From Actinomycetota bacterium (GTDB lineage Bacteria; Actinomycetota; Acidimicrobiia; IMCC26256; PALSA-610), in the NCBI GenBank assembly GCA_052390615.1, contig JBQTGT010000017.1:70536-134535 (forward strand): DNA of 64,000 nt. Direction: 5' to 3'. Position 1 is the first letter of the stretch, and every line of letters starts with the position of its first letter. The notes under the pieces are model-generated. The model saw only the letters and a program-made list of their open reading frames with translations, did no database searches and was not told the DNA's origin. Of this stretch, positions 17,538-32,162 are shown piece by piece. The translations under genes were made by a program, and so were the position numbers.

Positions 17538-18881
17538 CTAGGTGGCCGCTCGGTTGGATGGCCACTCGGGCCGGTAGTAGCCGTCGAAACGCAGCTCGCC
17601 CCCGCGCAGCTCGCGGATGGTCAGGAAGTCGCCCTTGTAACCCTTGTGGTCTCCTGGCCAGAACTGCACGTACGTCCCGGGGCCACCGTTGGTCGCGGGC
17701 ATCCACCGGATCCGCTCCAGACCGTCTCTCACGTCGCGCGGCGTGGGGATGCGCGCATTGGCGATGCCGTGAATCGCGGCGCGCGCGGTGTCGTAGGCGA
17801 GCGCAACAACGACATTGCGCGTCGCCCGGCCGAATCGCTGCTCGAACCGGCGGATCATCGCGTCGTAGTTCGCGTTGGTGCCCTCTTCGCCCAGCTGGTC
17901 GACGCCGTGCCATCCTTCGAGCCCTTCGGCCCACTTGTTGGAGTTCGAATAGAACATGAACGCGGTTCCCATCACCCGCGGCGGATCCCAGTCGAGCGCG
18001 CGGAACGCATCCGCGAAATGAAATGTCGAGTAGCCGTACCCGCCGTAGTAAATGCCTTCGGTGCCCATGTCGCGCATCTCGCCGAGCTGCTCCTTGAGGT
18101 TGCGAGGATTCGGCTCCAGCATCACCTCGCGCGTCACGATCAGGCCGAGGCGCATCGCGGTGTCGCGAAAGAAGTCGGCGTAGTCACGACCGGACGATCC
18201 CGCCTCCCAGAAGAGACCCACCTTCCTCAGGCCCTGCTGGTGCAGCCAGTTGGCGCACATGACGCCTTCGGTCGGGATGTCGCCGTTGGCGACGGTGAAG
18301 CAGTAATCGCTGGCGAACCGGTGCGCGCCGGTCCGGCCGATGACCGACACGCCGGTCTCGTCGGCGATCGGCTGGAGCGTCAGGCAGTTGTCGGAGATCA
18401 TTGGCTCGAGAACGATGACGCAACCCTGCTCGACGAGCCAGCGATAACCGGCGATGAGCTTGCGGTAGTTCTCGCGCGGCAGCCCGCGTGCGTCGCACGT
18501 GACGATCGCGACGGGGCTACGCCCCCACACGCCCTCGTTGAGCGCGTCCTCGAGCGCGAGGATCGTCGGATCGATCCAATCGGCGAGCAGCTGGCCGAGA
18601 TCCATGTCGACGAGCACACCGATCTTCACGGGCTCGAACGGATCGCCTTGCGTTGCGAGGCCTCGCGTCGGTGGGTACACGACGATCTCGGCGACCGCCT
18701 TTTCGCTCGCGCTTCCGCCACCCTCGTACCAAGCGTTCCCGTCACCGCCGCGGCCTTCCAGGTGCGAGCTCGTGCCGAAGGCAACGCTGCACACCGCGCG
18801 ATCAGGCGCGATCCCGTGGTCGACGGGCGCGGGAAACATCCGCTGCGCGTAGTGGTACCTGGGCGTTGCATCTCCGGCCAT
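17538..18881 (-). CDS. Solute-binding-like protein (Peripla_BP_6 / branched-chain amino-acid-binding fold), no obvious signal peptide
   Basis: ..VKIGVLVDMDLG..IAGYRWLVEQGCVIVLEPMISDN.. layout. Start at MAGDATPRY is approximate. No hydrophobic N-terminus is visible from any candidate start. Confidence 0.65.
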   Translation of the reverse strand: MAGDATPRYHYAQRMFPAPVDHGIAPDRAVCSVAFGTSSHLEGRGGDGNAWYEGGGSASEKAVAEIVVYPPTRGLATQGDPFEPVKIGVLVDMDLGQLLADWIDPTILALEDALNEGVWGRSPVAIVTCDARGLPRENYRKLIAGYRWLVEQGCVIVLEPMISDNCLTLQPIADETGVSVIGRTGAHRFASDYCFTVANGDIPTEGVMCANWLHQQGLRKVGLFWEAGSSGRDYADFFRDTAMRLGLIVTREVMLEPNPRNLKEQLGEMRDMGTEGIYYGGYGYSTFHFADAFRALDWDPPRVMGTAFMFYSNSNKWAEGLEGWHGVDQLGEEGTNANYDAMIRRFEQRFGRATRNVVVALAYDTARAAIHGIANARIPTPRDVRDGLERIRWMPATNGGPGTYVQFWPGDHKGYKGDFLTIRELRGGELRFDGYYRPEWPSNRAAT

Positions 18882-18950
18882 GACTCGATGCGACGTACGC
18901 CTGCCGGCGCGGCGACAGCCGGCTGCCGACGCGCCCGGCCGACCTCCTGA

Positions 18951-19011
18951 TTTCTCCACAGAGTCGATTCGCGGTCGCCGAGCGACCGGAACTCGACTCT
19001 GTGGACAGAAA
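18951..19011. repeat. Repeat family C, intact copy: ~61-nt nested hairpin
   Basis: Outer arms ccacagagtcga / tcgactctgtgg (12 bp perfect, extendable). Inner stem cggtcgc-cga-gcgaccg. Located in a divergent intergenic region. Confidence 0.7.
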
Positions 19012-19038
19012 CGCGGCGCGTTTGGCACCCTTCGGGCC

Positions 19039-19647
19039 ATGACCGACACGTTCCACGACGACCACCGCTACTGGCAGGACCGGTTCGACTCGCGCCGGAT
19101 CGCCGACCGGATCGACTCGCTCCTCGTCGTCGACCATGTCGACGCGCACGCCAAGCAGTTCATCGAGTCGCGCGACATGTTCTTCCTAGCGACGTGCGAC
19201 GACGACGGTCATCCGCAGTGCTCGTACAAGGGCGGTGACCCCGGTTTCGTGCGCGTGGTTGACGATCGAACGCTCGCGTTCGCCGTGTACGACGGCAACG
19301 GCATGTTCTTGTCGCTGGGCAACATCCGCCAGCACGCGAACGTCGGCATGTTGTTCGTCGACTTCGAACATCCGAACCGGCTGCGCGTCAACGGCGTTGC
19401 GACGGTGGACGAGCGCGACCCGCTGTTGTCCGAATTCGCCGGCGCGCGCCTTGTCGTGCGGGTGCAAACGACGCACGTGTTTCCGAATTGCTCGCGCTAC
19501 ATCCACCAGATGCAGCTCGTCGGGCGCTCGAAGTTCGTTCCGAAAGCGGACGTGGAGCCGCCAATCCCGGACTGGAAGCGCACGACGTGGGCGCGGGAGC
19601 ATCTGCCGGCGGGCGACCCGGCCAAGGACGCGGATCCGATCGCGTAA
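19039..19647 (+). CDS. Pyridoxamine 5'-phosphate oxidase family (FMN-binding split-barrel) protein
   Basis: Trimmed to MTDTFHDDHRYWQDRF... ..MFFLATCDDDGHPQCSYKGG..FVRVVDDRTLAFAVYDGNGMFLSLGNI... Confidence 0.75.
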   Translation: MTDTFHDDHRYWQDRFDSRRIADRIDSLLVVDHVDAHAKQFIESRDMFFLATCDDDGHPQCSYKGGDPGFVRVVDDRTLAFAVYDGNGMFLSLGNIRQHANVGMLFVDFEHPNRLRVNGVATVDERDPLLSEFAGARLVVRVQTTHVFPNCSRYIHQMQLVGRSKFVPKADVEPPIPDWKRTTWAREHLPAGDPAKDADPIA

Positions 19648-19841
19648 TCGCAATCCGAACGAACGCGCGCGCCCGGAGAACAAAAGAGCTCGGGTCGCCG
19701 GGCGGCGGCGGGCGGTCCGACCGGCCAGCGACCCGAGCAACCGCATCGGCACGGGGCGCCACGGGCCGACACGGCAGAACTTCGCAGGGGTACGGACCAG
19801 TCTCGCCTGATTTGGGCGGATGTCAAGCCGGAGTCACGGCG

Positions 19842-20234
19842 TCACTCGCGGATGTTCGGGGACAGCGCGTAGCCCTCCGCGCGCCAACCCGCGATCCCAC
19901 CGAGCATCTCCTTCACCGCGTGGCCGAGCGCCGCGAGCTTGGCCGCGGCGTGCGTCGCCGCGTTGCAGTGCGGACCCGCGCAGTACGTGACGACGACCGC
20001 GTCGCGTGGGATCCATGCCGTTGTTTCGACACTGATCGTGCAATGCGGCAGGCTGCGCGCGCCGGGGATGTGGCCGGCTGCGTACTCCCGTTCACTGCGC
20101 GCGTCCACGACAACGAACTTCGCGACGCCACCGGCCAGATCCATCCAGACGTCGGCGCAGTCGGTTTCGAAGCGCGCCCGTGCCGCGAAGTGGCGCGCGG
20201 CCTCGTCGGCCGGTGCCGCGGGCGTCGCGCTCAC
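19842..20234 (-). CDS. Rhodanese-like domain protein
   Basis: ..FVVVDARSEREYAAGHIPGARSLP..VVVTYCAGPHCNAA..LGGIAGWRAEG... The start is uncertain. Confidence 0.7.
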   Translation of the reverse strand: MSATPAAPADEAARHFAARARFETDCADVWMDLAGGVAKFVVVDARSEREYAAGHIPGARSLPHCTISVETTAWIPRDAVVVTYCAGPHCNAATHAAAKLAALGHAVKEMLGGIAGWRAEGYALSPNIRE

Positions 20235-20511
20235 GCGCGATCGGTGGACGGGTGTCGCGTCGGTCCTGCTCACCGGGTCGAACGCACGCACGCAGCGTGT
20301 TGGTGTCCGCACCAGCACGAGAAGCGGACCTCGAAGCCGCCAGTGGTTCGGTGCATGTCGAGGATGCGACCGGTGGGTATCAGCACGGTGCGATCCTGGG
20401 TTGGGCAGCGGGCGTCGAACATTCGTCGATCGTGCGCCCGACCGGGCTGGACACGAGTGGCGAGAACGACCATCATCGCGAGAATCCTGCCAGCTCCAAA
20501 GGGGGCGTCAG

Positions 20512-21507
20512 ATGCCGACCGGCTCGCACGCCGTCGTCGCGGTGGCCCTGCCGGGCGACCACGCGTTCGAGCTCGGAATCGCGTGTGAGGTGTTCGGCCT
20601 CGACCGGCCCGAGCTCGGCGTGTCGTGGTACGAGTTCCGCGTCTGCGCGCCCGAGGGCCGCGTCGACATGGGCGGGTTCTGGCTCGACACGCCGCACCGC
20701 CTCGACGTGCTCGCCGACGCGGACACGATCATCGTGCCGGTCGCCGCGACGGAGGCCGAACTGCCGGCGCCGCTCGTCGAGGCACTCGCCGCTGCGCACG
20801 CGCGGGGGGCGCGGCTGGTGTCGTACTGCAGCGGCGCGTTCGCGCTGGCCGCGGCGGGCGCCCTCGACGGGCGTCCCGCTACCACGCACTGGATGTACGC
20901 CCGCCGCCTCGCGGAGCGGTATCCGGCCGTACGCGTGCTTCCCGACGTGCTGTACGTCGACGACGGGCAAGTGCTGACCTCGGCCGGAACGTCGGCGGGC
21001 ATCGATCTGTCGCTGCACATCGTGCGCAACGATTACGGCAGCGCTGTCGCGAACGCGGTGGCGCGCCGCATGGTCGTGCCCCCGCACCGAGACGGTGGGC
21101 AGGCCCAGTTCGTCGACCAGCCGCTCCCCGCCGACGCGGGCGCGACGCTCGGTCCGACGCTGGAGTGGATCGTCCACAACATGGCGGAGCCGCTCACGGT
21201 CGAGCACATGGCCGCCCATGCACTCATGAGCACGCGCACGTTCATGCGCCGGTTTCGCGCGGTCGCGGGCACCACGCCGTTGCGGTTCCTCCTGCAACAG
21301 CGCGTCGGGCACGCCCGACGCCTGTTGGAGACGACCGCCGAGCCGGTCGAGCGCATCGCGCAGGAGTGCGGCTTCGGCACCGCGGCCAACCTGCGGCTCC
21401 ATTTCCAACGCGCGGTCGCGACGACGCCGACGCGCTACCGCCGCTCGTTCCGCGGCGGTGACGACCCGTTCGCGGACGACACCATCGCCGCCGCGAGCGC
21501 GGGCTGA
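20512..21507 (+). CDS. GlxA-type AraC family regulator (DJ-1/PfpI domain plus AraC HTH)
   Basis: Trimmed to MPTGSHAVVAVALPGDHAFELG... ..SYCSGAFALAAAGALDGRPATTHW.. followed by ..LSTRTFMRRFRAVAGTTPLRFL..IAQECGFGTAANLRLHF... Confidence 0.85.
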   Translation: MPTGSHAVVAVALPGDHAFELGIACEVFGLDRPELGVSWYEFRVCAPEGRVDMGGFWLDTPHRLDVLADADTIIVPVAATEAELPAPLVEALAAAHARGARLVSYCSGAFALAAAGALDGRPATTHWMYARRLAERYPAVRVLPDVLYVDDGQVLTSAGTSAGIDLSLHIVRNDYGSAVANAVARRMVVPPHRDGGQAQFVDQPLPADAGATLGPTLEWIVHNMAEPLTVEHMAAHALMSTRTFMRRFRAVAGTTPLRFLLQQRVGHARRLLETTAEPVERIAQECGFGTAANLRLHFQRAVATTPTRYRRSFRGGDDPFADDTIAAASAG

Positions 21508-21525
21508 GTGCGAGGATCGCGCCCG

Positions 21526-22101
21526 ATGTTGTGGCCCGACGAGCCGACAATCGGAGGTATCCCGCTGCGCGGTCGTCTCCTCGTCGCGGCGCCGCCCCTC
21601 GTCGACCCCAACTTCGATCGCACGGTCGTGCTCGTGCTCGAACACGGCGAGGACGGCGCGCTCGGCGTCGTGCTCAATCGCCCGAGCGGCACCGAGCTCG
21701 AGGAGGCGCTCCCCGACTGGGATGCGTTCGCGACCAAGCCGTCGGTCGTTTTCGTCGGTGGACCCGTGTGCCGCGACAGCGTGATCGCGCTGGCTCGCCG
21801 CGGCGCGACAGCCGCAGGCTGGGTGTCGGTGGTCGGCGATCTCGGCACGATCGACCTCGGCGTCTCACCGAGCGACGGTGCGGCAGGCTTGGCGGCGCTG
21901 CGGGTCTTCGTCGGCTACTCCGGTTGGAGCCCGGGACAACTCGAAGCCGAGATCGAGCAGGGCGGGTGGTTCATCGTCGACGCGGAGCCCACTGATCCGT
22001 TCGCGGCGCATCCCGACACCCTGTGGCGCGACGTGCTCCGGCGTCAGCGCGGACGGCTTCGCATCTTCGCGATGTGTCCGGAAGACCCGAGCACGAATTA
22101 G
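21526..22101 (+). CDS. YqgE/AlgH family protein (UPF0301)
   Basis: ..GRLLVAAPPLVDPNFDRTVVLVLEHGEDGALGVVLNRP..GYSGWSPGQLEAEI... A GTG at 21508 is an alternative start. Confidence 0.8.
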   Translation: MLWPDEPTIGGIPLRGRLLVAAPPLVDPNFDRTVVLVLEHGEDGALGVVLNRPSGTELEEALPDWDAFATKPSVVFVGGPVCRDSVIALARRGATAAGWVSVVGDLGTIDLGVSPSDGAAGLAALRVFVGYSGWSPGQLEAEIEQGGWFIVDAEPTDPFAAHPDTLWRDVLRRQRGRLRIFAMCPEDPSTN

Positions 22102-22147: not shown

Positions 22148-24913
22148 CTAGCCGCCCAAACGCAGGGGCGTGCTCTCCGAAACGGTCCAGGGCCCGGTGA
22201 GGTTGATGTAGGCCTGGTCGACCGAATCGCGCGGCATGGCACCGGCGGCGCCCCGAACCAGACCCTCCATGTCCTTCACCGACTGCGTCGTCACCATGGG
22301 GGCGGGCAGCTCGTTCTTTTCAGTGCCCCGCGCATTGTCGGTCGTCTTGGCTGCGCCGCGGTACTCGACCCCTGCCACATATACCAGCTCGTCGGCGGTA
22401 TCGACGTTCAGCCCGTTGCCCGGCTTGCGGAACGTCGAGTTCGCGTAGCTGCCGTACCCGAAGATCGAGTTGACGACGTTGCCAGACGCGTCGTTCTCGT
22501 AGCGCACGCCCCAGAGGACCCAGTCCTCGACGATGTTGTTCCGGAAGTCGACGAAGGCTTCGTTGGCGAGCGGGCCACGGACCCACTGCTTCTGCACCCA
22601 GTTGTGGTGCAGCGTCACGTTGTCGACGCCCTTGTACTTGATGAAGATGGACCGGGTGTTGCCGGCGAAGAACGAGTACTGGACGGTGACGTTCTTCGCG
22701 CCGTAGCCGATCGAGATTCCGTCGTCCTTGGCGCCCGTCGACGAGATGTGGCTGAACACGATGTTCTTCGCACCCTCGCCTTGAGCGCGGACGTTGTCGC
22801 CGCCGTTGCGGAACCGCATGTCACGCACGATCACGTTCTGGCTCCCGACGGCGAACGTCGCACTCTGCGAGAAGGCCAACGACGGCCCGCCGACGAGCGT
22901 GACGCCGTTGCCTTCGACCGTGACGTTGTTCGCCGTCAAGTTGAGCGGCGAGTTCACCGTGATCGGACCACGGGTCGTGAAGACGATCCGAGACTTCTTG
23001 CCTGCATTGCTGTTCGTCTTGGCCTTCGCGAGCGCCGCCTTGACCGCGGCTTCGGTCGGCGTGCACACGATGATCAGCTCGCCACCGTTGCCACCGGAGG
23101 TGACGCCGAAGCCTTGCAGGGGCTCGCTCGAGGGCGGCGCGGGTGCGTTCGTGCACGACCCCGGGCCGGATGGCGTCGTACTTCCGGGCGTCGTCGTCGT
23201 CGGCGTCGTGTCGCCCGGTTCGCGCACGGTGATCTGGACGGTGGCCGTGTCGGTCGCCGTGCCGTCGCTCACCGTGACCCGTGCGCTGTAGGTGCCGGCA
23301 CGACCGTAGGTGTGGGTCGCGCGGGCTCCAGTCGTCGGCGCCCCGGGCCCGACGGGCAGCATCGGACGGTAGGCCGGCACCGTGCACTTCCGGCGCTGGA
23401 GTTCCAACTTGGCTTCGCCCACGTTCTCGGCCGTCCTGTTGGCGTCAGTTCGACCCGGGAAGCCGCCGAGGCGCGCTTGCTCCTCGCTCTCGCGGCTGTA
23501 GAGGTATGCGAACGCGTACCGCGCGCAGCCGTCGAGGTCGTGCACGTCGGCGTCGTTGTACAGGTAGAGCGCGCCGAGGTCGTGGCCGATGCGCATCAGG
23601 AACAAGCGTGAGATCTGGTCGATACGCCGAAAGTTGCTGTCGGTGAACGGCGCGTTCGAAGTAATCCCGGTCAGCGGCGCGAACTTGGCCGCCGCCGCGA
23701 GGTACATCGGGACCGACGACCGCTTGTTCGCGTCGCCGCCCTTCTCGCGTACCTCGTCGGCGGCGCGGTACGCGACGCGCGCGTCTGTGACGGCTTGGCC
23801 GGCGTCGGCCGCGGCGGCCGTACCGGCAGTACCGTCGCCGAAGTCGAACGTGTACGTGAGCGGGTCGCGGTCGGCGTCCGCAGACGTAGACGCGTCGAGC
23901 GTGACCTGGAGCGGCCCGACACCGCTCGCCGGTGTCGCCGCGATGCGGGCGTCGGGCGCGTGGTTGCCGTTGGGGCCGGTCGTCGGTGGCGTCGTGTTCG
24001 GAGGACGCGTCGTCGGCGGCGTCGAGCTGCCGCCCGCGGCACGGAGGATCGCAATTCCGCCTGGTCCCGAACCGGCGTTGAGTTGGGTGACCCAGCTTGT
24101 CTGCGCCGCGAAGCCGTTTCCTGTGTTGCGGAACGCCTTCTTGAGCTGGGCACCGGTATTGATGACGAGCAGGTCGGGACGGCCGTTGCCGTCGACGTCG
24201 GCCGCACCGGGTATGGCGTCGCTGCCGACATCGGGCGTGTCCCACTGCGGCGCGCGGGTGAAGGGCGCGGTTGCGTTCCCGGTACCGAGGAATGCGGAGA
24301 TGCTCCCGTCGCGCAGTCCGACGACGAGATCGGTCTTGCCGTCGCGGTTGAAGTCGGCAGTGGCGGGGCGAGGGTACGAACCGTTCAGGTTCTGGTTCCA
24401 CTGCGGCTTCTTGGCCCACGCGGGTGCGTTCCGTGTGCCGACGTTCTCGAGCGCGACGACGTCGAACTGACCGGCGGAGACGCCGACGAGCAGGTCCTGG
24501 TCGCCGTCGCGGTCGAGGTCGGCCGTCGCGGGTGCGGGGACTGAATCGAAGTCGAACTTCGGGTCCCAGTTGCTGGCGGGTGCCCAGCGCGGCGCGCCGT
24601 CGCTGCCGTCGTTGCGGAACGCGCGTACGTATCCACCGCTCTCACCGACGAGAGCATCGAGGTCGCCGTCGCCGTCGAGGTCGGCCAGCGTCGGGTGCGC
24701 GTTCGAGCCCGCGTCCGGAATGTCCATGGCCGAGTCGCGCGCCCAGTCGCCGCCGATGTGCGCGCTGCGGTACGCCCAGCTCTTGCCGTCGGAGCGACCG
24801 AGGTACGCGATCAGTGCGTCGTCGGCGGCTGCCCCCGCGGGCACCAAGCTCGCGAACGTGCTGAACGCCAACACTGCGCCGAGCGCAGCTCCGCTACCCC
24901 GCCGTACGTCCAT
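22148..24913 (-). CDS. Secreted multidomain protein: FG-GAP/VCBS repeats, PKD domain with a large insert, pectate-lyase-like beta-helix (paralog 1)
   Basis: Trimmed to MDVRRGSGAALGAVLAFSTFASLVPAGAAA. Repeated ..DLDGDGDLDALVG.. / ..DLDRDGDQDLLVG.. motifs. ..YTFDFGDG.. and ..THTYGRAGTYSARVTVSDG... C-terminal ..NTRSIFIKYKGVDNVTLHHNW..RGPLANEAFVDFRNNIVEDW... Confidence 0.85.
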   Translation of the reverse strand: MDVRRGSGAALGAVLAFSTFASLVPAGAAADDALIAYLGRSDGKSWAYRSAHIGGDWARDSAMDIPDAGSNAHPTLADLDGDGDLDALVGESGGYVRAFRNDGSDGAPRWAPASNWDPKFDFDSVPAPATADLDRDGDQDLLVGVSAGQFDVVALENVGTRNAPAWAKKPQWNQNLNGSYPRPATADFNRDGKTDLVVGLRDGSISAFLGTGNATAPFTRAPQWDTPDVGSDAIPGAADVDGNGRPDLLVINTGAQLKKAFRNTGNGFAAQTSWVTQLNAGSGPGGIAILRAAGGSSTPPTTRPPNTTPPTTGPNGNHAPDARIAATPASGVGPLQVTLDASTSADADRDPLTYTFDFGDGTAGTAAAADAGQAVTDARVAYRAADEVREKGGDANKRSSVPMYLAAAAKFAPLTGITSNAPFTDSNFRRIDQISRLFLMRIGHDLGALYLYNDADVHDLDGCARYAFAYLYSRESEEQARLGGFPGRTDANRTAENVGEAKLELQRRKCTVPAYRPMLPVGPGAPTTGARATHTYGRAGTYSARVTVSDGTATDTATVQITVREPGDTTPTTTTPGSTTPSGPGSCTNAPAPPSSEPLQGFGVTSGGNGGELIIVCTPTEAAVKAALAKAKTNSNAGKKSRIVFTTRGPITVNSPLNLTANNVTVEGNGVTLVGGPSLAFSQSATFAVGSQNVIVRDMRFRNGGDNVRAQGEGAKNIVFSHISSTGAKDDGISIGYGAKNVTVQYSFFAGNTRSIFIKYKGVDNVTLHHNWVQKQWVRGPLANEAFVDFRNNIVEDWVLWGVRYENDASGNVVNSIFGYGSYANSTFRKPGNGLNVDTADELVYVAGVEYRGAAKTTDNARGTEKNELPAPMVTTQSVKDMEGLVRGAAGAMPRDSVDQAYINLTGPWTVSESTPLRLGG

Positions 24914-24992
24914 GTACGGGCCCCCTGTCCGTGTTTTCGCCCACGGCATGTATATCGCCCGGTCGGCGGGGGCCGATATGGGTCTTTTGACG

Positions 24993-27791
24993 CTACGGCA
25001 CGAGGCGCAGCGGGTTCCCGTCGCCCGTGTGCCACTCACTGTGGCGGTTGATGTACGTTGCGTCGATTGCATCGCGGGGCAGTGCCCCGGCGCCGCCCCG
25101 CACCAGACCCTCCATCTGGGCAACCGATTGCGTCGTGACACCGGCCGCGGGCAGTTCGCGCGCTTCGGTTCCCCGCGCCGAGTTGGCGGCCTTGGCCGCG
25201 CCGCGGTATTCGATGCCGGTCACGTACACGCGCGCCTCGTTGGTCTTGACGTTGAGTGCGTTGGCCGGCTTGCGGAACCTCTCGTTCGCATAGTCGCTGT
25301 ACCCGAAGATCGAGTTGACCACGTTGCCGGACGAGCCGTCTTCGTACCGAACGCCCCACATCGTCCAGTCCTCGACGATGTTGTTGCGGAAGTCGACGAA
25401 CGCGCCGTTCGCCAGGGGACCGCGAATCCACTGCTTCATCACCCACGTGTGGTGAATCGAGACGTTGGTCACGCCGTCGTACTTGATGAAGATCGACCGC
25501 GTGTTCCCCGCGAGAAACGAGTACTGCACGGTGACGTCGTGCGCGCCGTACCCGATCGATATCCCGTCGTCATACGCGCCCGTCGAGGAGATGTGGCTGA
25601 ACACGACGTGATGCGCACCGGTCCCCTGGGCGCGCAGATTGTCGCCGCCGTTGCGCACCCGCATGTCGCGCACGATGACATCGTGGCTCCGAACGTCGAG
25701 CACGGCCGCGGCCGAGCGCGAGAGCGACGGACCGGCGATCAGGGTGACGCCGTTCCCTTCGATTGTCAGGTTGTTCGCTTCGACCTTGAGGGTGGAGTTC
25801 ACCACGATCGGACCCATGACGGCGAAGACGACCCGCGACTTCTTTCCCGCCTTGCTGTTGACCTTCGCCTTCGCGAGCGCGGCCTTGACTGCGTCGCTCG
25901 TCGGCGCGGCCACTGTGACAACCTCCCCGCCCGCGCCACCGGCGGTCGCGCCGAAACCCTCGAGCGGCTCGCTCCCCGTTGAGCCGGGTGGCGCAGCCGG
26001 CGGCGCGACCGTGCCGACCACGACCGTCGTCGTCGCTGTCGTCGAGTGCACCCCCGCGCGCATGGTCACCGTCACGGTGTACGTCCCGGCCTTCGCGTAC
26101 GTGTGGGTTGTCAAAGGTCCGTTCGACGGTTCCGCCGCGCCCGGCTTCTTGAACATCGGTTGGTACGCGGGAATCGCGCACTTGTACTTGGAGAGCTTCG
26201 CCTTGGCTTCGTCACGGTTCTCCGACGTCCCGTTCGCGCTCGCCAGTGATCCGAACCCGCCGAGCTCGGCTTGCTTCATGCCGTCGAGGCTGTACAGAAA
26301 CGCCTTCTCGTAGCGCGCGCACCCGTCGAGACCGTGGACCGAAGCGCTGTTGTACAGGTAGAGCGCGCCGAGGTCGTGGCCGAGCTTCATCAGGTAGTAG
26401 CGCGACACCTCGTCAATGCGCGTGAACTTCCCGCTCTTCGCGCTGAACGGCGACGTCGCCGTCACTGCCGTGAGCGCATCGAACTGGTACGCGGCGTCGA
26501 GATACATGACGATCGACGCGCCCTTGTGACCGTCCTCGCGTACGTCGTCGGCACGATCGTACGCATCGCGAGCGGACCTGATCGCGGCGGCCGGATCGGC
26601 GGGCACGGGGGGTAGCGGTGCGCTCGCGGTGCCGTCGCCGAAGTCGAACGCGTACGAGAGCGCGTCGCCGTCGGGATCGGAGGACGCCGACGCATCGACG
26701 GTGACGTTGATCGGCGCGGCCCCGCCCGGCGGCGTGACGGTCACGACCGCGATTGGCGGCCGGTTCCCGGGCGGCACGGTGGTCGGAGGCGGTGGCGCGG
26801 TCGTGGTTGTCGTGGTGGCGGGAGCCGTTGTGGTCGTCGGCGCCACGGTGGTGGTCGTCGTCGAAGTCGGCGGGGAGGTCGTGGGGGAAGTCGTCGGGGA
26901 AGTCGCGGGGGAAGTCGTCGGCGACGAGGGGGCGCGTCGCCACGCGACCGCGATGCCGCCCGGGCCGGAACCGGCGTCCAGCGGTACCAGCCACGACGGT
27001 TCCGCGACAAACGCCGCACCCGCATTGCGGAACGCGCCGACGAGCTGGGCACCGCTGTCGACAACGAGTGCGTCGGCGCGGCCGTCGCCGTCGAGCGGCA
27101 CGAGCGCGACCGCGACGTTGGTGCCAAGGACTGGCAGGTCCCATGCGGGCGTGAGCACGAACGGATTCGGCGCGGCGCCGGTGTTGAGATAGCCGATTGG
27201 GTTCCCGGAGCGACCGACCAACAGGTCGGCGCGGCCGTCGCCGTCCAGATCGCCCGCGCCCGGCCGCGCGAAGCCGCCGAGATCACCGAGGCTCCACGCA
27301 GGTTGGTCGACCCATACTGGTGCCGACACGCTGCCGGTGTTCTGCAGCGCGTCGACGACCCCGGTCGAGTTGCCGACGAGCGCGTCGAGGTCACCGTCGC
27401 CGTCGACGTCGATGAGGGCCGGCGCGGCCTGCGTCCCGAAGTCGATTCCCGGCTCCCACGCCGGTGTTGCGCTCCATGCCGGCGCGGCCGCGCTGCCGGT
27501 GTCGCGGTACGCGCGCACGAGACCCCCGGCTTCTCCGATCAGCGCGTCGAGGTCCCCGTCGTCGTCGAGGTCGCCGAAGGTCGGGAACGCGGACGAGCCG
27601 ATATCGGGGAGGCCGAGTGCAGGCGAGGCCGTCCACGCTCCGCCTGGGCCCGCGCTCGTGAACGCGAGGCTGTTCCCGGAGGACATCCCCACGTAGACGA
27701 CGAGGGAGGATCCCGGTGATGGGCTGGATTCAAGCGCACCACCGGCGAGTGGCAGCGCGACGAGTACCGCCACGAGGGATCCGACTTGCAT
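24993..27791 (-). CDS. Secreted multidomain protein, paralog 2 (same architecture)
   Basis: Signal ..RHRGRRMQVGSLVAVLVALPLAGGA, with a possible GTG start at 27827. FG-GAP motifs, long Pro/Thr linker, ..YAFDFGDG.. and ..THTYAKAGTYTVTVT.., and the same beta-helix motifs as paralog 1. Confidence 0.85.
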   Translation of the reverse strand: MQVGSLVAVLVALPLAGGALESSPSPGSSLVVYVGMSSGNSLAFTSAGPGGAWTASPALGLPDIGSSAFPTFGDLDDDGDLDALIGEAGGLVRAYRDTGSAAAPAWSATPAWEPGIDFGTQAAPALIDVDGDGDLDALVGNSTGVVDALQNTGSVSAPVWVDQPAWSLGDLGGFARPGAGDLDGDGRADLLVGRSGNPIGYLNTGAAPNPFVLTPAWDLPVLGTNVAVALVPLDGDGRADALVVDSGAQLVGAFRNAGAAFVAEPSWLVPLDAGSGPGGIAVAWRRAPSSPTTSPATSPTTSPTTSPPTSTTTTTVAPTTTTAPATTTTTTAPPPPTTVPPGNRPPIAVVTVTPPGGAAPINVTVDASASSDPDGDALSYAFDFGDGTASAPLPPVPADPAAAIRSARDAYDRADDVREDGHKGASIVMYLDAAYQFDALTAVTATSPFSAKSGKFTRIDEVSRYYLMKLGHDLGALYLYNSASVHGLDGCARYEKAFLYSLDGMKQAELGGFGSLASANGTSENRDEAKAKLSKYKCAIPAYQPMFKKPGAAEPSNGPLTTHTYAKAGTYTVTVTMRAGVHSTTATTTVVVGTVAPPAAPPGSTGSEPLEGFGATAGGAGGEVVTVAAPTSDAVKAALAKAKVNSKAGKKSRVVFAVMGPIVVNSTLKVEANNLTIEGNGVTLIAGPSLSRSAAAVLDVRSHDVIVRDMRVRNGGDNLRAQGTGAHHVVFSHISSTGAYDDGISIGYGAHDVTVQYSFLAGNTRSIFIKYDGVTNVSIHHTWVMKQWIRGPLANGAFVDFRNNIVEDWTMWGVRYEDGSSGNVVNSIFGYSDYANERFRKPANALNVKTNEARVYVTGIEYRGAAKAANSARGTEARELPAAGVTTQSVAQMEGLVRGGAGALPRDAIDATYINRHSEWHTGDGNPLRLVP
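26864..26923. repeat. Five tandem 12-nt units (gaagtcgNSggg-like) encoding the TSP[TA] linker of paralog 2
   Basis: Units gaagtcggcggg/gaggtcgtgggg/gaagtcgtcggg/gaagtcgcgggg/gaagtcgtcggc read directly. The minus strand encodes ..TTSPATSPTTSPTTSPPTS... Confidence 0.7.
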
Positions 27792-28122
27792 TCGCCGTCC
27801 GCGATGACGAGCGCGAGCGCCAGGCACAAAGTCCCCCCATCTCGTGCCTCGCAGCTCGGTCCCGCTGTGGTTATCGTCACATCGCGTCGCGATGCTTGAA
27901 TGGCGCGTGGTCTGGATCACCGACATGGGTGTCCCCATCTCGGCTGGGACCTCGCCGAGGCGCTCGTCGTCGAAGACGAGCTCGTCCGCCCGGGACACGG
28001 CTGGCCGTTCGACTGTGCCGGACGCGCGCAGAAACGCGCTCGAGGGCCCGGTTCCGACGGTCCGCATCGACAGCGTCGGTGACGACGCGCGCGTCTGCGC
28101 GCAGAACTCGTGACCGCGGCCG

Positions 28123-29376
28123 TCAGTTCGGCGTGAACACCACCGGTAAGTGCGATACGGTCGTCACGAGCGAGTTCGGCGCGCGCTCGGCCGAGGCATC
28201 GGGTCCCACCCGCAGATCGGGCAGTCGCGTGAACAGCTCCTCCAGGAGGATCCGAATCTCGGTCCGAGCCAGGTTGGCGCCCAGACAGAAATGCGGCCCG
28301 GTGCCGAACGCGAGATGCAGGTTAGGAGCTCGATCGACGCGGAACTCGTGCGGATCGTCGAACACGTCCGCATCACGATTTGCCGACGGATAGACGTTCA
28401 GGAGCACGTCGCCCTCGCGCAGCGCCCGACCGCGGAGTTCGGTCGCGGCCGTGACCGTGCGAGAAAAGCTGATCACCGGCGAGACGTAGCGCAGGATCTC
28501 TTCGGTCGCGCTGTTCACGAGCGAGAGGTCGGCGACAAGCCGCGCGCGTTGGTCCGGAAAGGTCGAAAGCGCTTCGATTCCGCCCGACAGCGCGTTGCGT
28601 GTCGTCTCGTTCCCGGCAACAAGCAGGAGCACGCAGAACGCGAGCACGTGGTCGCCTTCCAGGCCCATGTCGGTGACCGCGCCGGATTGCAGCTGCTCCT
28701 GGAGCCGATCCTCGTTGAATTCGATCTCGCCCGCGTCGGCCGAAGACAGCAACACCGAGATGAGGTCGTCGCGCGGGTGACGGCGGCGTTCCTCGACGAG
28801 CACCATCAGGTATGTGACGTAGTCGGCCCACGCTTCGCCGGCGGCCACGATGCGCGGGTCCTCACCCTCGGCACCTTCGGCGCTCATCATCGTGTCCGAC
28901 CAGCGGCCCAACTGTTCGCGGTCCGCGGGCGGCAAGCCGAGCAGCTCGGCGATGACGATCAGCGGCAGCGGCCGGGCAATGTCGACGACGAAATCACACT
29001 CACCGCGCCCGGCAACCGCGTCGACCAGCGCGCGGGCGACTTCGCGGATGTGGTCGAACATTTCGTTGATTCGCGACGGCGTGAACCCTCGGCTGACGAG
29101 CTTGCGGTGGCGGGCGTGCTCGGGGTCGTCCATCGACACGATCGACAGGTCACCACCGCCGCCACCCTTCGGTCGCACGCCTTGTGCACTCGAGAACAGC
29201 TCCGGATGTCGTTCGACGTGCGCGACGTCGTCGTACTTGGAAACGACCCAGATTCCGTTGCGGTCGTCCCAGTGCACGGGATCGTTGGCCCGCAGCCAAT
29301 CGAACACGTCATGGGCCACGCCCCGCACGTAGAGCGTGGGGTCGAGCGCGTCGGGCTCGAATGCAGACGTCGTCAT
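28123..29376 (-). CDS. Cytochrome P450
   Basis: Trimmed to MTTSAFEPDALDPTLY... AGNETTRN, EEILRY, heme motif FGTGPHFCLGANLAR. Confidence 0.9.
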   Translation of the reverse strand: MTTSAFEPDALDPTLYVRGVAHDVFDWLRANDPVHWDDRNGIWVVSKYDDVAHVERHPELFSSAQGVRPKGGGGGDLSIVSMDDPEHARHRKLVSRGFTPSRINEMFDHIREVARALVDAVAGRGECDFVVDIARPLPLIVIAELLGLPPADREQLGRWSDTMMSAEGAEGEDPRIVAAGEAWADYVTYLMVLVEERRRHPRDDLISVLLSSADAGEIEFNEDRLQEQLQSGAVTDMGLEGDHVLAFCVLLLVAGNETTRNALSGGIEALSTFPDQRARLVADLSLVNSATEEILRYVSPVISFSRTVTAATELRGRALREGDVLLNVYPSANRDADVFDDPHEFRVDRAPNLHLAFGTGPHFCLGANLARTEIRILLEELFTRLPDLRVGPDASAERAPNSLVTTVSHLPVVFTPN

Positions 29377-29954
29377 CCGTGATCCTTGTCGAGTCGAGCG
29401 AAGACCTGGCCCAGCTCGCGCGCACTCGCCGCGAGCGCGCGCCGCCGGCCGTCGGGTTGCGGGAGGTGTTCGAGCATCACGCCGTAGAGCGCGTGGCGCA
29501 GCGCGCGAACGACGGCCCGGTCGTGCAATACCGGCGCGTCCGGCAGCAGCTGGCGAATCCACGTCGCCAACGCGCTCTCGAACGCAGCGCTCGTTTCGAG
29601 CAAGGGTTGGAGGACATCGTCGTCGCCGTGGATTGCCTCGGCGAGCAGTGTGCGCCAGAGGTCGTCGTCCGCGGCCATGCCGATGAACAGGTGGTCGACC
29701 AACGCGCCCAGGCGCTCGGCGACCGTGCCGGGGAGCCCTTCGGGGAAGGGGACCGTGAACAGCTCGCCCGCCAGCCGGTGCGCGATCGCGGCCTGGCAGA
29801 GGTCGCGCTTGGACGAGAAATAGTGGTAGAGCGTGGCGACGTTGCAGCCGCACCGCTGCGCGACAGCCCGCATGCTGGTGCCGCGCGCGCCGTGCTGGGC
29901 CATCAGGCCGAGGGTGGCGTCGAGGATGCGCGCCGGCTGATCCACACCCGGCAC
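29373..29954 (-). CDS. TetR family transcriptional regulator
   Basis: 193 aa. ..ILDATLGLMAQHGARGTSMRAVAQRCGCNVATLYHYFSSKRDL... ATGA overlap with the P450. Confidence 0.85.
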   Translation of the reverse strand: MPGVDQPARILDATLGLMAQHGARGTSMRAVAQRCGCNVATLYHYFSSKRDLCQAAIAHRLAGELFTVPFPEGLPGTVAERLGALVDHLFIGMAADDDLWRTLLAEAIHGDDDVLQPLLETSAAFESALATWIRQLLPDAPVLHDRAVVRALRHALYGVMLEHLPQPDGRRRALAASARELGQVFARLDKDHG

Positions 29955-29961
29955 TCTCTAT

Positions 29962-29975
29962 CAAACGTTCGTTTG
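29962..29975. promoter_or_regulatory. Candidate TetR operator palindrome caaacgttcgtttg
   Basis: 6-bp arms with a 2-nt centre, 8 nt upstream of the TetR GTG start in the divergent TetR/Nudix intergenic region. Confidence 0.35.
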
Positions 29976-30035
29976 GGTCAAGGCCTGGACCAGGCACCTT
30001 GTTTCCGCTCAGAATGAGTATTAGACCGGCGAGCC

Positions 30036-30761
30036 GTGGAGGAATTTCCTTCGATCGCGGTGACGGTCGACGCCGTCGTGTGCACCGTCGCGGGCGGGCG
30101 GCTCGCGGTGCTGCTCGTGCAGCGCGCCAACGACCCGTTCCGCGGCGGCTGGGCGCTGCCCGGCGGCTTCGTCGAGCCCGACGAGGATCTCGACGTCGCG
30201 GCGCGCCGCGAGCTCGCCGAGGAAACGGGCGTGTCGATCGGCGGCGAAATGTCAGCGCCACACGCGGGCGGTCTCGGACACATCGAACAGCTCCGCACTT
30301 ACGGCGCGCAAGGTCGCGATCCACGCGGGCGCACGGTGTCGGTCGCGTACGTGGGATTCACTGCCCGTACCGACGTCGTCGCCGGTTCCGACGCGGCCGA
30401 CTCGCGCTTTTGGGCGGTCGATGACCTCTCGATCCCGTCGATCGGCACGGCGGATGGCGTTCCGCTCGCGTTCGACCATGCGCGGATCGTTGCCGACGGT
30501 GTCGAGCGGGCGCGTTCCAAGCTCGAATACACGACGCTGGCGACCGCATTCCTCGACGAGCCGTTCACACTCGGCGAACTGCGCCGCGTGTACGAAGCGG
30601 TGTGGGGCGATGCGCTGCACGAAGGGAACTTTCGCCGCAAAGTGTTGTCGACGCAGGGCTTCGTCGAGCCCACTGGCGAAACCGCGCCGACTGAGGGCCG
30701 CCCGGCCGCGCTGTACCGCCGTGGCGCGGCGACGCGACTGCACCCGCCGATCCTGCGCTGA
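30036..30761 (+). CDS. NrtR-like protein: Nudix hydrolase domain plus C-terminal winged-helix domain
   Basis: Intact Nudix box GGFVEPDEDLDVAARRELAEETGV. C-terminal ..YTTLATAFLDEPFTLGELRRVYEAVWG..GNFRRKV.. is typical of NrtR wHTH. Confidence 0.75.
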   Translation: MEEFPSIAVTVDAVVCTVAGGRLAVLLVQRANDPFRGGWALPGGFVEPDEDLDVAARRELAEETGVSIGGEMSAPHAGGLGHIEQLRTYGAQGRDPRGRTVSVAYVGFTARTDVVAGSDAADSRFWAVDDLSIPSIGTADGVPLAFDHARIVADGVERARSKLEYTTLATAFLDEPFTLGELRRVYEAVWGDALHEGNFRRKVLSTQGFVEPTGETAPTEGRPAALYRRGAATRLHPPILR

Positions 30762-31633
30762 TGCGTTCCGGGGCCTTTCCGGGTTCGTTCGATCCACCGA
30801 CGATCGCGCACCTCGCGATCGCACACGCAGCGGTGGACGCCGCGCGCCTCGATCGTCTCGACTTCGTCCTGTCGCGTGTCGCCCTCGGCAAGGAGAACCG
30901 GGGCGAGGCCGACAGCCGCGCCGCGACCCTCGAACAGCTCGCGACAACACGGCCGTGGCTCGGCGTACGCATCACCGACGACCAGCTCATCGTCGACATC
31001 GCGCGCGGCTACGACGTCGTCGTGATGGGCGCCGACAAGTGGACAGAAGTGCGGGATCCCGCGTGGTACGGGTCCGCGGCGGCCCGGGACGACGCGCTCG
31101 CTCGGCTGCCACGCGTTCTCGTCGTGCCCCGGTCGGGAATCGCGATCGAGGCGGCGGAGGTGCTCGACCTCGCCGATGACTTGGATCATGTCTCTTCGAC
31201 GGCCGCGCGCGCGGGCGCGCAGGTCCTGGTGGCGCCCGAGCTGCGGTCCCGGTTGCTCGTCGACGTCATGAACGTCATCGGGAGCCGGCCCGACGGCTGG
31301 TGGAAGGACCGGGACGGCGCCGCGCGCCGGTTGATCCGCTCGCTCCAAGCGCGCGCCCGTCGCACAGGCGAACGGATTGCGGCCGTACTCGACGGCCGCG
31401 CCCTGCCGGACCTTCCCGAAGGGGTCCACGACGGCGTGCTCGTGGCGTACGCGACGCGCCGCGGCCGCGATGCGGCCGACGACCGCATCGTTTCGGAGGT
31501 CGAACGCGACCGCGACCCTGCGTCGTTGACGGTTGTGACGTCGGATAGAAGGCTGCGCGAACGGGTGCAGGCGCTGGGCGCACAGGTCGCGCCAGCCAGC
31601 TCCGTCATCGATCGGGGATCGGCATCCCGGTAA
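30761..31633 (+). CDS. Fusion protein: NadD/NMNAT-like nucleotidyltransferase plus YacP/NYN-like domain
   Basis: N-terminal GSFDPPTIAHL (HxGH-type) and VSSTAAR (ISSTxxR-type) motifs. C-terminal ..VMNVIGSRPDGWW..VLDG..DAADDRIV..LTVVTSDRRLRERV..GAQV.. is NYN_YacP-like. TGATG overlap with the Nudix gene. Confidence 0.7.
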   Translation: MRSGAFPGSFDPPTIAHLAIAHAAVDAARLDRLDFVLSRVALGKENRGEADSRAATLEQLATTRPWLGVRITDDQLIVDIARGYDVVVMGADKWTEVRDPAWYGSAAARDDALARLPRVLVVPRSGIAIEAAEVLDLADDLDHVSSTAARAGAQVLVAPELRSRLLVDVMNVIGSRPDGWWKDRDGAARRLIRSLQARARRTGERIAAVLDGRALPDLPEGVHDGVLVAYATRRGRDAADDRIVSEVERDRDPASLTVVTSDRRLRERVQALGAQVAPASSVIDRGSASR

Positions 31634-32162
31634 CGCCGTCGTCGCGCTCGACGCGGAACGCATTCAGCGCCATCGAGACGAGGTGGTACTGACCGACGGT
31701 GAACACGACGTCGAGTAGCTGCTGCGCGTCATAGCGCGCGGCGAGGGCGGCGTACGTGGCGTCGGTGAGCGTCATCTTGTCGTGGAGCTCGTCCGCGGCC
31801 CGCACGAGCATCGCATCGAAGGGATCCCATCCCGGCGTCTCCGGGCCGATCGCGATGCGCTCGATCTCGTCGTCAGTGATTCCTGCGGCACGCGCGATGA
31901 CGATGTGCTGGCCCCACTCGTACGGCGCCCGGCACCGCCAACCGGTGCGCAAGATCAGTATCTCTCGATCGCGCGCCGACAATGTGCTCTTGCCGAGCAC
32001 GTGCGTTCCGAACACAAGCCAGCGCTTCAACAACTTCGGATGGTGCGCGAGCGTGCCGAAGATGTTGAGCACCTTCCCGCCGCCCTCGTCGGGCGCGAGG
32101 ATGGCATGGACCTCGGCGTCCCACTCCTCGGGGGGCAGGGGCTCGAGCCGCGGGTCAGACAC
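31605..32162 (-). CDS. Carboxymuconolactone decarboxylase (AhpD-like) family protein
   Basis: 185 aa. ..FGTLAHHPKLLKRW..REILILRTGWRCRAPYEWGQH... Confidence 0.85.
   Translation of the reverse strand: MSDPRLEPLPPEEWDAEVHAILAPDEGGGKVLNIFGTLAHHPKLLKRWLVFGTHVLGKSTLSARDREILILRTGWRCRAPYEWGQHIVIARAAGITDDEIERIAIGPETPGWDPFDAMLVRAADELHDKMTLTDATYAALAARYDAQQLLDVVFTVGQYHLVSMALNAFRVERDDGVTGMPIPDR

Follow-up and report, generated by a model that had tools for sequence, protein, structure and literature searches.

A helical domain predicted to lie within the PKD fold of putative secreted polysaccharide lyases from uncultured soil bacteria

Two neighboring genes in a 64,000-nucleotide stretch of an Actinomycetota genome (assembly GCA_052390615.1, contig JBQTGT010000017.1, positions 70,536 to 134,535; hereafter, the window) encode large proteins in which the two halves of a PKD domain stand about 170 residues apart. 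Are these the halves of one domain interrupted by a guest, and if so, what is the guest, where else does it occur, and what might it do? The genes, paralog 1 (p1; 22148–24913, 921 residues starting at MDVRR) and paralog 2 (p2; 24993–27791, 932 residues starting at MQVGS), form a tandem pair on the minus strand with 80 base pairs between them (24914–24992), and all features of the pair described below lie on that strand. Their domain order is the same. As judged from sequence, both are secreted, beads-on-a-string proteins consisting of a signal peptide, an FG-GAP propeller, a Pro/Thr linker, a PKD domain carrying the insert, a second linker, and a PL1-like beta-helix.

The PKD motifs FDFGDGT and THTY are separated by 170 residues in p1 (23848–23828 and 23317–23306) and by 173 in p2 (26648–26628 and 26108–26097). 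An initial annotation of the window had reported a gap of this size in both paralogs, with insert coordinates that proved correct to about 9 nucleotides, and had noted that the spacing in a normal PKD domain is short; an ordinary tandem PKD protein (P0034) indeed has approximately eight residues at the FGDG–HxY site (FGDGTTGSGKVKTHTY). With spans of 170 and 173 residues, and of 168–175 in other family members, these proteins depart from the short loop (about 8–10 residues) expected of a PKD domain.

Four lines of evidence give good support to a model in which the flanks form a single Ig-like PKD sandwich, as the initial annotation proposed, with the module predicted to sit in the loop between the FGDG strand (C') and the HxY strand (E). 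The first is profile complementarity. In p1, the N-terminal half (23828–23965; strands A to C', ending in FDFGDGT) matches PKD_4 positions 1–50 at residues 317–367, and the C-terminal half (23216–23317; THTY...VTVSDG..., strands E, F and G) matches Pfam PKD positions 37–80 at residues 522–563. The corresponding halves of p2 (26628–26765 and 26007–26108) match PKD_4 positions 1–47 at residues 343–390 and PKD positions 43–80 at residues 554–592. The native proteins thus score 52.5 and 49.0 bits for PKD_4 (p1 and p2, cut-off 27) and 42.5 and 49.1 bits for PKD (cut-off 23.5), in each case as two complementary stretches. When the insert is excised in silico, p1 yields one continuous PKD_4 match (positions 3–85 of 85, 62.9 bits) and p2 a single PKD match (positions 4–80 of 80, 59.3 bits).

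Structure prediction agrees. In an AlphaFold2 model of the p1 PKD plus insert, built on a 7-sequence alignment (predicted local distance difference test score, pLDDT, 83.6), the strands of the two halves (12–52 and 218–251 of the model) flank helices at 58–194. Foldseek aligns single 85–87-residue PKD domains from crystal structures of ColG with this model across roughly 250 columns, with a TM-score normalized to the target (TMt) of 0.86–0.88 and a root-mean-square deviation of 1.4–1.6 Å; the superposition spans both halves of the model, and therefore both are needed to make one sandwich. Finally, nature provides PKD domains of this kind without the insert. Four relatives (L020, L033, L034 and L056) have 18 residues between FGDGT and HVY, and in Pfam L020 gives one continuous PKD_4 match (positions 1–83 of 85).

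The insert itself comprises 170 residues in p1 (23318–23827; folded module approximately 23348–23815) and 173 in p2 (26109–26627; excisable unit approximately 26124–26582). The two copies are readily aligned, as had been observed initially, and are 52% identical (BLASTP E = 6e-54). Modeled alone on 24 sequences, the insert is predicted with a pLDDT of 95.6 and a predicted TM-score (pTM) of 0.91, which, together with the modeling described above, gives good support to a discrete and independently folding module of about 155 residues with five long helices (5–24, 28–48, 65–86, 96–116 and 128–141), one beta-hairpin (54–64), and, past helix 5, an extended conserved C-terminal tail with the pattern C-x-V-P-x-x-x-P-M; the suggestion that the insert is helical is thereby upheld. 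The PKD–insert connectors are short, rich in Ala, Gly and Pro, variable in sequence, and low in pLDDT.

Across 29 sequences, helices 1–2 follow a TPR-like consensus, Y..A..R(D).G......A...Y.....L.PLT, and further conserved stretches read RIDRVARWYLQKI.HDLG..YL, C.RY, LQ.SRES..QA.AGGFP.LP..NGT, and C..P.P.P.F. R24, H79, D80 and two cysteines are invariant or nearly so. The cysteines, already singled out in the initial annotation, lie at the start of helix 4 (LDGCARY; 23525–23527 in p1) and just past helix 5 (RKCTVPAY; 23384–23386), with the p2 codons at 26319–26321 and 26178–26180. The first is invariant in the 24-sequence alignment, and both are invariant in seven full-length sequences and at least 90% conserved in the 29. 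In the topology of the model, the two would share one end of the bundle. Considered with their conservation, this suggests that a disulfide between them could pin the tail, which would run back along the bundle so that the N- and C-ends of the module meet, as insertion into a loop requires. Two further cysteines occur in p1 and not in p2, GSCTN in the linker (approximately 23153–23155) and IIVCTP at the start of the beta-helix (approximately 23063–23065), and these may form a second, paralog-specific disulfide.

Among 29 full-architecture sequences, mean pairwise identity is 53% for the insert, 51% for the propeller, 53–59% for the PKD halves and 63% for the lyase domain. By this measure the insert equals the other accessory modules in conservation and falls below the lyase, and it is under purifying selection.

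The initial annotation could not assign the insert to a family, and neither could we. Searches of Pfam and NCBIfam produced no significant match, PDB sequences were unmatched in both single-sequence and profile searches, and Foldseek comparison of the insert with the PDB gave no hit with E < 0.001; the best TM-scores, 0.46–0.47, were to designed helical repeats and to the TPR regions of LGN and Ctr9. Nothing significant emerged from the viral folds of BFVD. Literature searches for PKD domains with a nested or inserted domain returned nothing relevant.

Several specific identities were considered and rejected. Membership of the TPR/Sel1 group, with which the insert shares all-alpha antiparallel helical hairpins and the helix 1–2 pattern, finds a best Pfam match of E = 0.077 (TPR_3, in 1 of 24 members) and Foldseek TM-scores of at most 0.47 (E > 0.09) with deviations of 6–7 Å, and the insert differs from TPR proteins in its beta-hairpin, Cys pair and wrap-around tail. 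The invariant H-D pair raised the possibility of an HD-domain metal-dependent phosphohydrolase (PF01966), but Pfam gives no match to this domain even at E-values up to 10, no HD structure is among the Foldseek PDB matches, and one family member, P0029, is without the HD pair. An intein (HINT) is also rejected, given the junctions GDGT-AGT... and ...GARA-THTY: the insert starts with AGT or ASA, no His-Asn precedes THTY, and the predicted fold is all-alpha.

Does the insert occur in other contexts? When 1.84 billion representative proteins were searched exhaustively with HMMER, a profile of the two inserts retrieved 23 of them, with E-values down to 6e-97 that put the similarity well outside chance, and those complete enough to judge have FGDG, 175–210 residues, HxY, and then the same beta-helix. 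Three candidates for a stand-alone form (P0013, P0015 and P0067) turn out to be pieces of genes that have the full architecture but are split into three ORFs. Apparent stand-alone short insert proteins in databases arise because family copies are broken into ORFs in this way; several copies (L070, 2468–4899; L001, 1088–2123; L002, 6701–9448; L003, 6895–9451) are frameshifted into two to three ORFs or, in L070, heavily degraded, and the broken copies are either assembly errors or pseudogenes. Neither the profile search nor the genome and metagenome scans described below found the insert outside the propeller–PKD–beta-helix architecture. In word-index homolog searches with the PKD plus insert, ordinary PKD proteins crowded the results and long members of the family were absent, and exact-sequence searches of contigs for p1, p2 and P0010 gave no match. 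Overall, there is good support, on the strength of these sequence searches, for regarding the insert as a previously undescribed domain family, so far found in this architecture alone.

The family reaches well beyond this genome, and it has natural insert-less relatives; both observations add to the initial annotation. A degenerate DNA pattern for L[QM][KR]x[GA]HDLG[GA]xY[LF] gave 16 matches in 185,579 GTDB species genomes, of which 15 are true loci and one (L007, 36% GC) is a chance match; an earlier scan of genome contigs with poorly conserved peptide patterns gave no match. All 15 loci belong to metagenome-assembled genomes (MAGs), labeled Candidatus Binatia, 'delta proteobacterium', Polyangiaceae or Thermodesulfobacteriota, and their spans are those of 168–175 residues given above. 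With the present genome, the family is known from MAGs labeled Actinomycetota, Binatia, Polyangiaceae and Thermodesulfobacteriota: it is rare but spread over several phyla of uncultured soil bacteria. The other fetched loci are single copy, except that two MAGs each carry a second copy on a different contig (L005 paired with L016, and L010 with L017).

A metagenome scan with an alignment of the beta-helix yielded 54 loci. Mapping five local hidden Markov models on 70 loci revealed three architectures. In class (a), which accounts for 31 of 31 insert-bearing loci with enough upstream sequence, the order is propeller, PKD N-half, insert, PKD C-half, beta-helix. Class (b), made up of the four insert-less loci introduced above, has a signal peptide, an intact PKD and the beta-helix. 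Class (c) has the beta-helix alone, in about a dozen closely related loci as well as more distant ones; the proteins of L042, L043, L048, L049, L053, L058 and L059–L063 are secreted or lipoprotein-like. With these models, loci of classes (b) and (c) showed neither FG-GAP repeats nor the insert. The catalytic domain is thus found on its own, with a single accessory module, or with the full set. More distant beta-helix relatives, at 27% identity, take other forms: L071 (4001–7474) has in tandem three units resembling our beta-helix alignment (A4), and in L067–L069 (2597–7411; 1605-residue ORF) about 470 N-terminal residues of helical-repeat character precede the beta-helix.

The junctions in class (b) match those of insert-bearing relatives on both sides, as in L009, FGDGTTPVGQPPADPGAA[~150 aa]PLPGARLAHVY, versus L033, FGDGTVAGGRTARDPAAS-SARLTHVY, with the junction motifs ADP.. 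and ..ARLTHVY kept in the insert-less variants. Alignment of these junctions with L020 and L033 places the unit absent from such relatives at approximately 23330–23791 in p1. In a neighbor-joining tree of the beta-helix (200 bootstraps), class (b) is monophyletic (100%); it belongs to a clade that also holds six insert-bearing sequences (96.5%), and 98% of replicates place it inside insert-bearing lineages. The simplest reading of these sequences is a secondary loss in class (b), in which the module was removed precisely and the propeller went with it; recombination offers another route to the same arrangement.

The remaining domains set the context for the module. In p1 the FG-GAP/VCBS repeat region, a putative beta-propeller at about residues 30–300 (24014–24826, boundaries approximate), matches FG-GAP_3 (E = 2.8e-19) and FG-GAP (E = 2.4e-15), both in excess of the curated cut-offs; bit scores for the FG-GAP domains of the pair are 69.9 and 56.9 with FG-GAP_3 (gathering cut-off 26.9) and 56.4 and 29.7 with FG-GAP (cut-off 22.1). 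The C-terminal domain (22151–23122 in p1; 24996–25967 in p2, where it is part of alignment A4) is a PL1-like right-handed beta-helix and a putative polysaccharide lyase, on the basis of similarity and an aligned catalytic Arg. Among PDB sequences it matches VexL (6fi2, E = 2.1e-7) and a pectate lyase (9buj, E = 4e-6); its roughly 320 residues align with VexL residues 45–316, including the HHN motif, and the R of WVRGPL (in HHNW..KQWVRGP) aligns with Arg232, the catalytic residue of VexL (PMC6003464). The domain falls short of the Pfam gathering scores for Pectate_lyase_4 (19.7 bits, cut-off 24) and Beta_helix (23.2 bits, cut-off 25.9). Similarity to VexL and 9buj is low, and the second Arg of RxPR is Leu in p1 and p2. 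Moreover, VexL is without a propeller, PKD or helical module, whereas p1 and p2 have all three. The paralogs are 69.5% identical in the lyase domain and only 46% in the propeller. Pro/Thr-rich linkers of varying length join propeller, PKD and beta-helix; that between PKD and beta-helix has about 35 residues in p1 and about 15 in p2, and is poly-Pro in others. The propeller–PKD linker of p2 (approximately 26770–26950) is a long Thr/Ser/Pro low-complexity repeat (TTSPATSPTTSPTTSPPTSTTTTT...), and its p1 counterpart is shorter and different.

What, then, might the module do? It is well supported that the module is extracytoplasmic, conserved, and nested in the C'–E loop of a single PKD, and equally that it is dispensable for the integrity of the PKD or lyase domain. 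Insert-less lyase homologs, with an intact PKD or none, retain the HHxW...RGP catalytic-Arg motif, and the existence of such close homologs marks the insert as an accessory module, outside the catalytic machinery. On balance these sequence comparisons lead us to favor an accessory tethered module for binding or as an adaptor, probably working with the FG-GAP propeller to target the PL1-like lyase. We picture it at the tip of the PKD stalk on flexible tethers, where it and the N-terminal propeller would position the lyase on a polysaccharide or cell-surface target. Cooperation between insert and propeller is proposed because the two always co-occur and are both missing in the lineage that keeps only the PKD.

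Several points weigh against this proposal. A binding role for the module is something that we infer from sequence, and its ligand and partner are putative. The insert has a net charge of -0.9 ± 4.2; it is roughly neutral, so it carries no obvious signature of polyanion binding, and an overall basic, polyanion-binding surface is ruled out. The structures of the insert and of the PKD plus insert are predictions from shallow alignments (24 and 7 sequences, respectively), the two-domain model has a pTM of only 0.64, and rigid packing of the module against the propeller or lyase is possible. Co-loss of insert and propeller is seen in a single lineage, and the losses that left the beta-helix alone represent few independent events.

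Two other functional readings start from the same facts. The module could be a rigid part of the catalytic unit, packed on the beta-helix or its groove as a groove extension, specificity lid or auto-inhibitory cap. Specificity in VexL-type PL1 enzymes is set by elaborations around the groove (PMC6003464), the insert has an invariant polar cluster (R24, H79, D80, R100 and E110), and among the 54 loci retrieved with the beta-helix it occurs only beside this beta-helix subfamily. Yet the linkers between PKD and beta-helix are very unequal, both connectors of the insert are of low complexity and low pLDDT, and close beta-helix homologs without the insert keep the catalytic motifs, and we judge such a role unlikely. 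We are equally doubtful that the module is a pure strut or spacer, perhaps an oligomerization element, that makes the PKD stalk larger or stiffer and has no ligand of its own. PKD and Fn3 domains are often spacers in secreted carbohydrate-active enzymes, and the folds nearest to the insert, at the TM-scores given above, belong to helical-repeat scaffolds and to designed helical proteins that self-assemble. Against this, some 20 polar or glycine-rich positions are at least 90% identical across phyla (RIDRVAR, HDLG, SRES, GGFP, NGT), and the module co-varies in presence with the propeller, neither of which would be expected of a spacer.

Two further explanations deny the nested domain altogether. 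Pfam reports each PKD model as two separate stretches, which could be read as two independent Ig-like domains or half-domains joined by a helical linker. The stretches, however, are complementary and non-redundant parts of one profile, each half has just 35–45 residues, joining them restores a full-length match, AlphaFold2 and Foldseek indicate a single sandwich (TMt 0.88), and natural insert-less relatives carry one normal PKD; this arrangement is very improbable. Neither two independent Ig domains nor a known PKD-associated domain, either of which the initial annotation had named as grounds for abandoning its proposal, was found. The chance that the insert is an artefact or selfish element, whether mis-assembly, frameshifted read-through, intein or mobile-element remnant, is slighter still. 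Several database homologs are indeed fragmented ORFs, but these are pieces of the same architecture, an uninterrupted reading frame runs the length of the gene in p1 and p2 and is also seen in many independent MAGs and metagenome contigs that come from separate studies, and the insert is under purifying selection.

The accessory-module reading has a bolder form, which we offer tentatively and think will probably not hold in full. The insert would found a new extracellular alpha-helical family without detectable relatives and form a composite recognition unit with the propeller, as a TPR-like receptor arm that projects from the PKD loop and docks on the propeller, or cooperates with it, in capturing a specific glycan or protein for the lyase; it would also be a cleanly removable cassette, excised precisely in one lineage to leave a working PKD. 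If true, nature would here provide a case in which the nesting of a domain within an Ig-like fold is reversible.

Comparison with known systems shows which parts are familiar. With canonical PKD domains (PF00801/PF18911; the Clostridium histolyticum collagenase ColG, 4aqo, 4tn9 and 2y72) those of p1 and p2 share the motifs WDFGDG and HxY...G.Y.v.l.V.D and, as predicted here, the same seven-strand sandwich, and in both cases the domain is a module of a secreted multidomain enzyme. They differ after FGDG, where the ordinary domain has its loop of about eight residues and p1 and p2 have a folded helical domain within an insert of 170–173. Nested domains have precedents in the integrin alpha I domain, which sits in a loop of an FG-GAP propeller, and in the PA domain of subtilases. 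The insert can be likened to both as a complete domain in a host loop, with close termini, that would add a binding module; in p1 and p2, however, a small PKD sandwich plays host to a guest bigger than itself, from a family not described before. Domain nesting, PKD modules and PL1 lyases all have precedents. What is new is the domain family and its PKD-nested placement.

Some details of the gene pair and its surroundings remain to be recorded. The p1 gene, delimited from the ORF list, translation and Pfam matches, lies in a longer ORF (22148–25141) with its stop codon at 22148–22150, and the likely start at 24913 is suggested by a signal-peptide-like N-terminus. For p2 the start is ambiguous, with a long ORF that opens at 28067 and a likely start at 27791 or 27773. 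The NCBI record (MGQ0824534.1, 'MAG: FG-GAP-like repeat-containing protein [Actinomycetota bacterium]') uses 27773, which gives a signal peptide whose n-region lacks charge; starting at 27791 or further upstream keeps RHRGRR and would give a more typical one. Genes flanking the pair (17538–22101 and 28123–31663) encode Peripla_BP_6, PNPOx-like, rhodanese, DJ-1/AraC regulator (GlxA/AraC), AlgH-like, cytochrome P450 and TetR proteins, among which no link to polysaccharide metabolism is apparent. The neighborhood offers no functional clue, since the flanks at the homolog loci L002 and L003 are also unrelated and are not conserved between loci.

PKD domains are among the commonest modules of secreted bacterial enzymes and are usually regarded as inert spacers; here, a PKD loop is predicted to host a folded domain bigger than the PKD itself. 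The finding neither opens nor settles a major question. It does provide a new domain family that is open to curation, with a high-confidence structure prediction despite few sequences, and naturally occurring counterparts, one carrying the insert and one lacking it, in which the gain and loss of domain insertions can be studied. It also draws attention to putative polysaccharide lyases in poorly known soil lineages, namely Binatia, Polyangiaceae and uncultured Actinomycetota.

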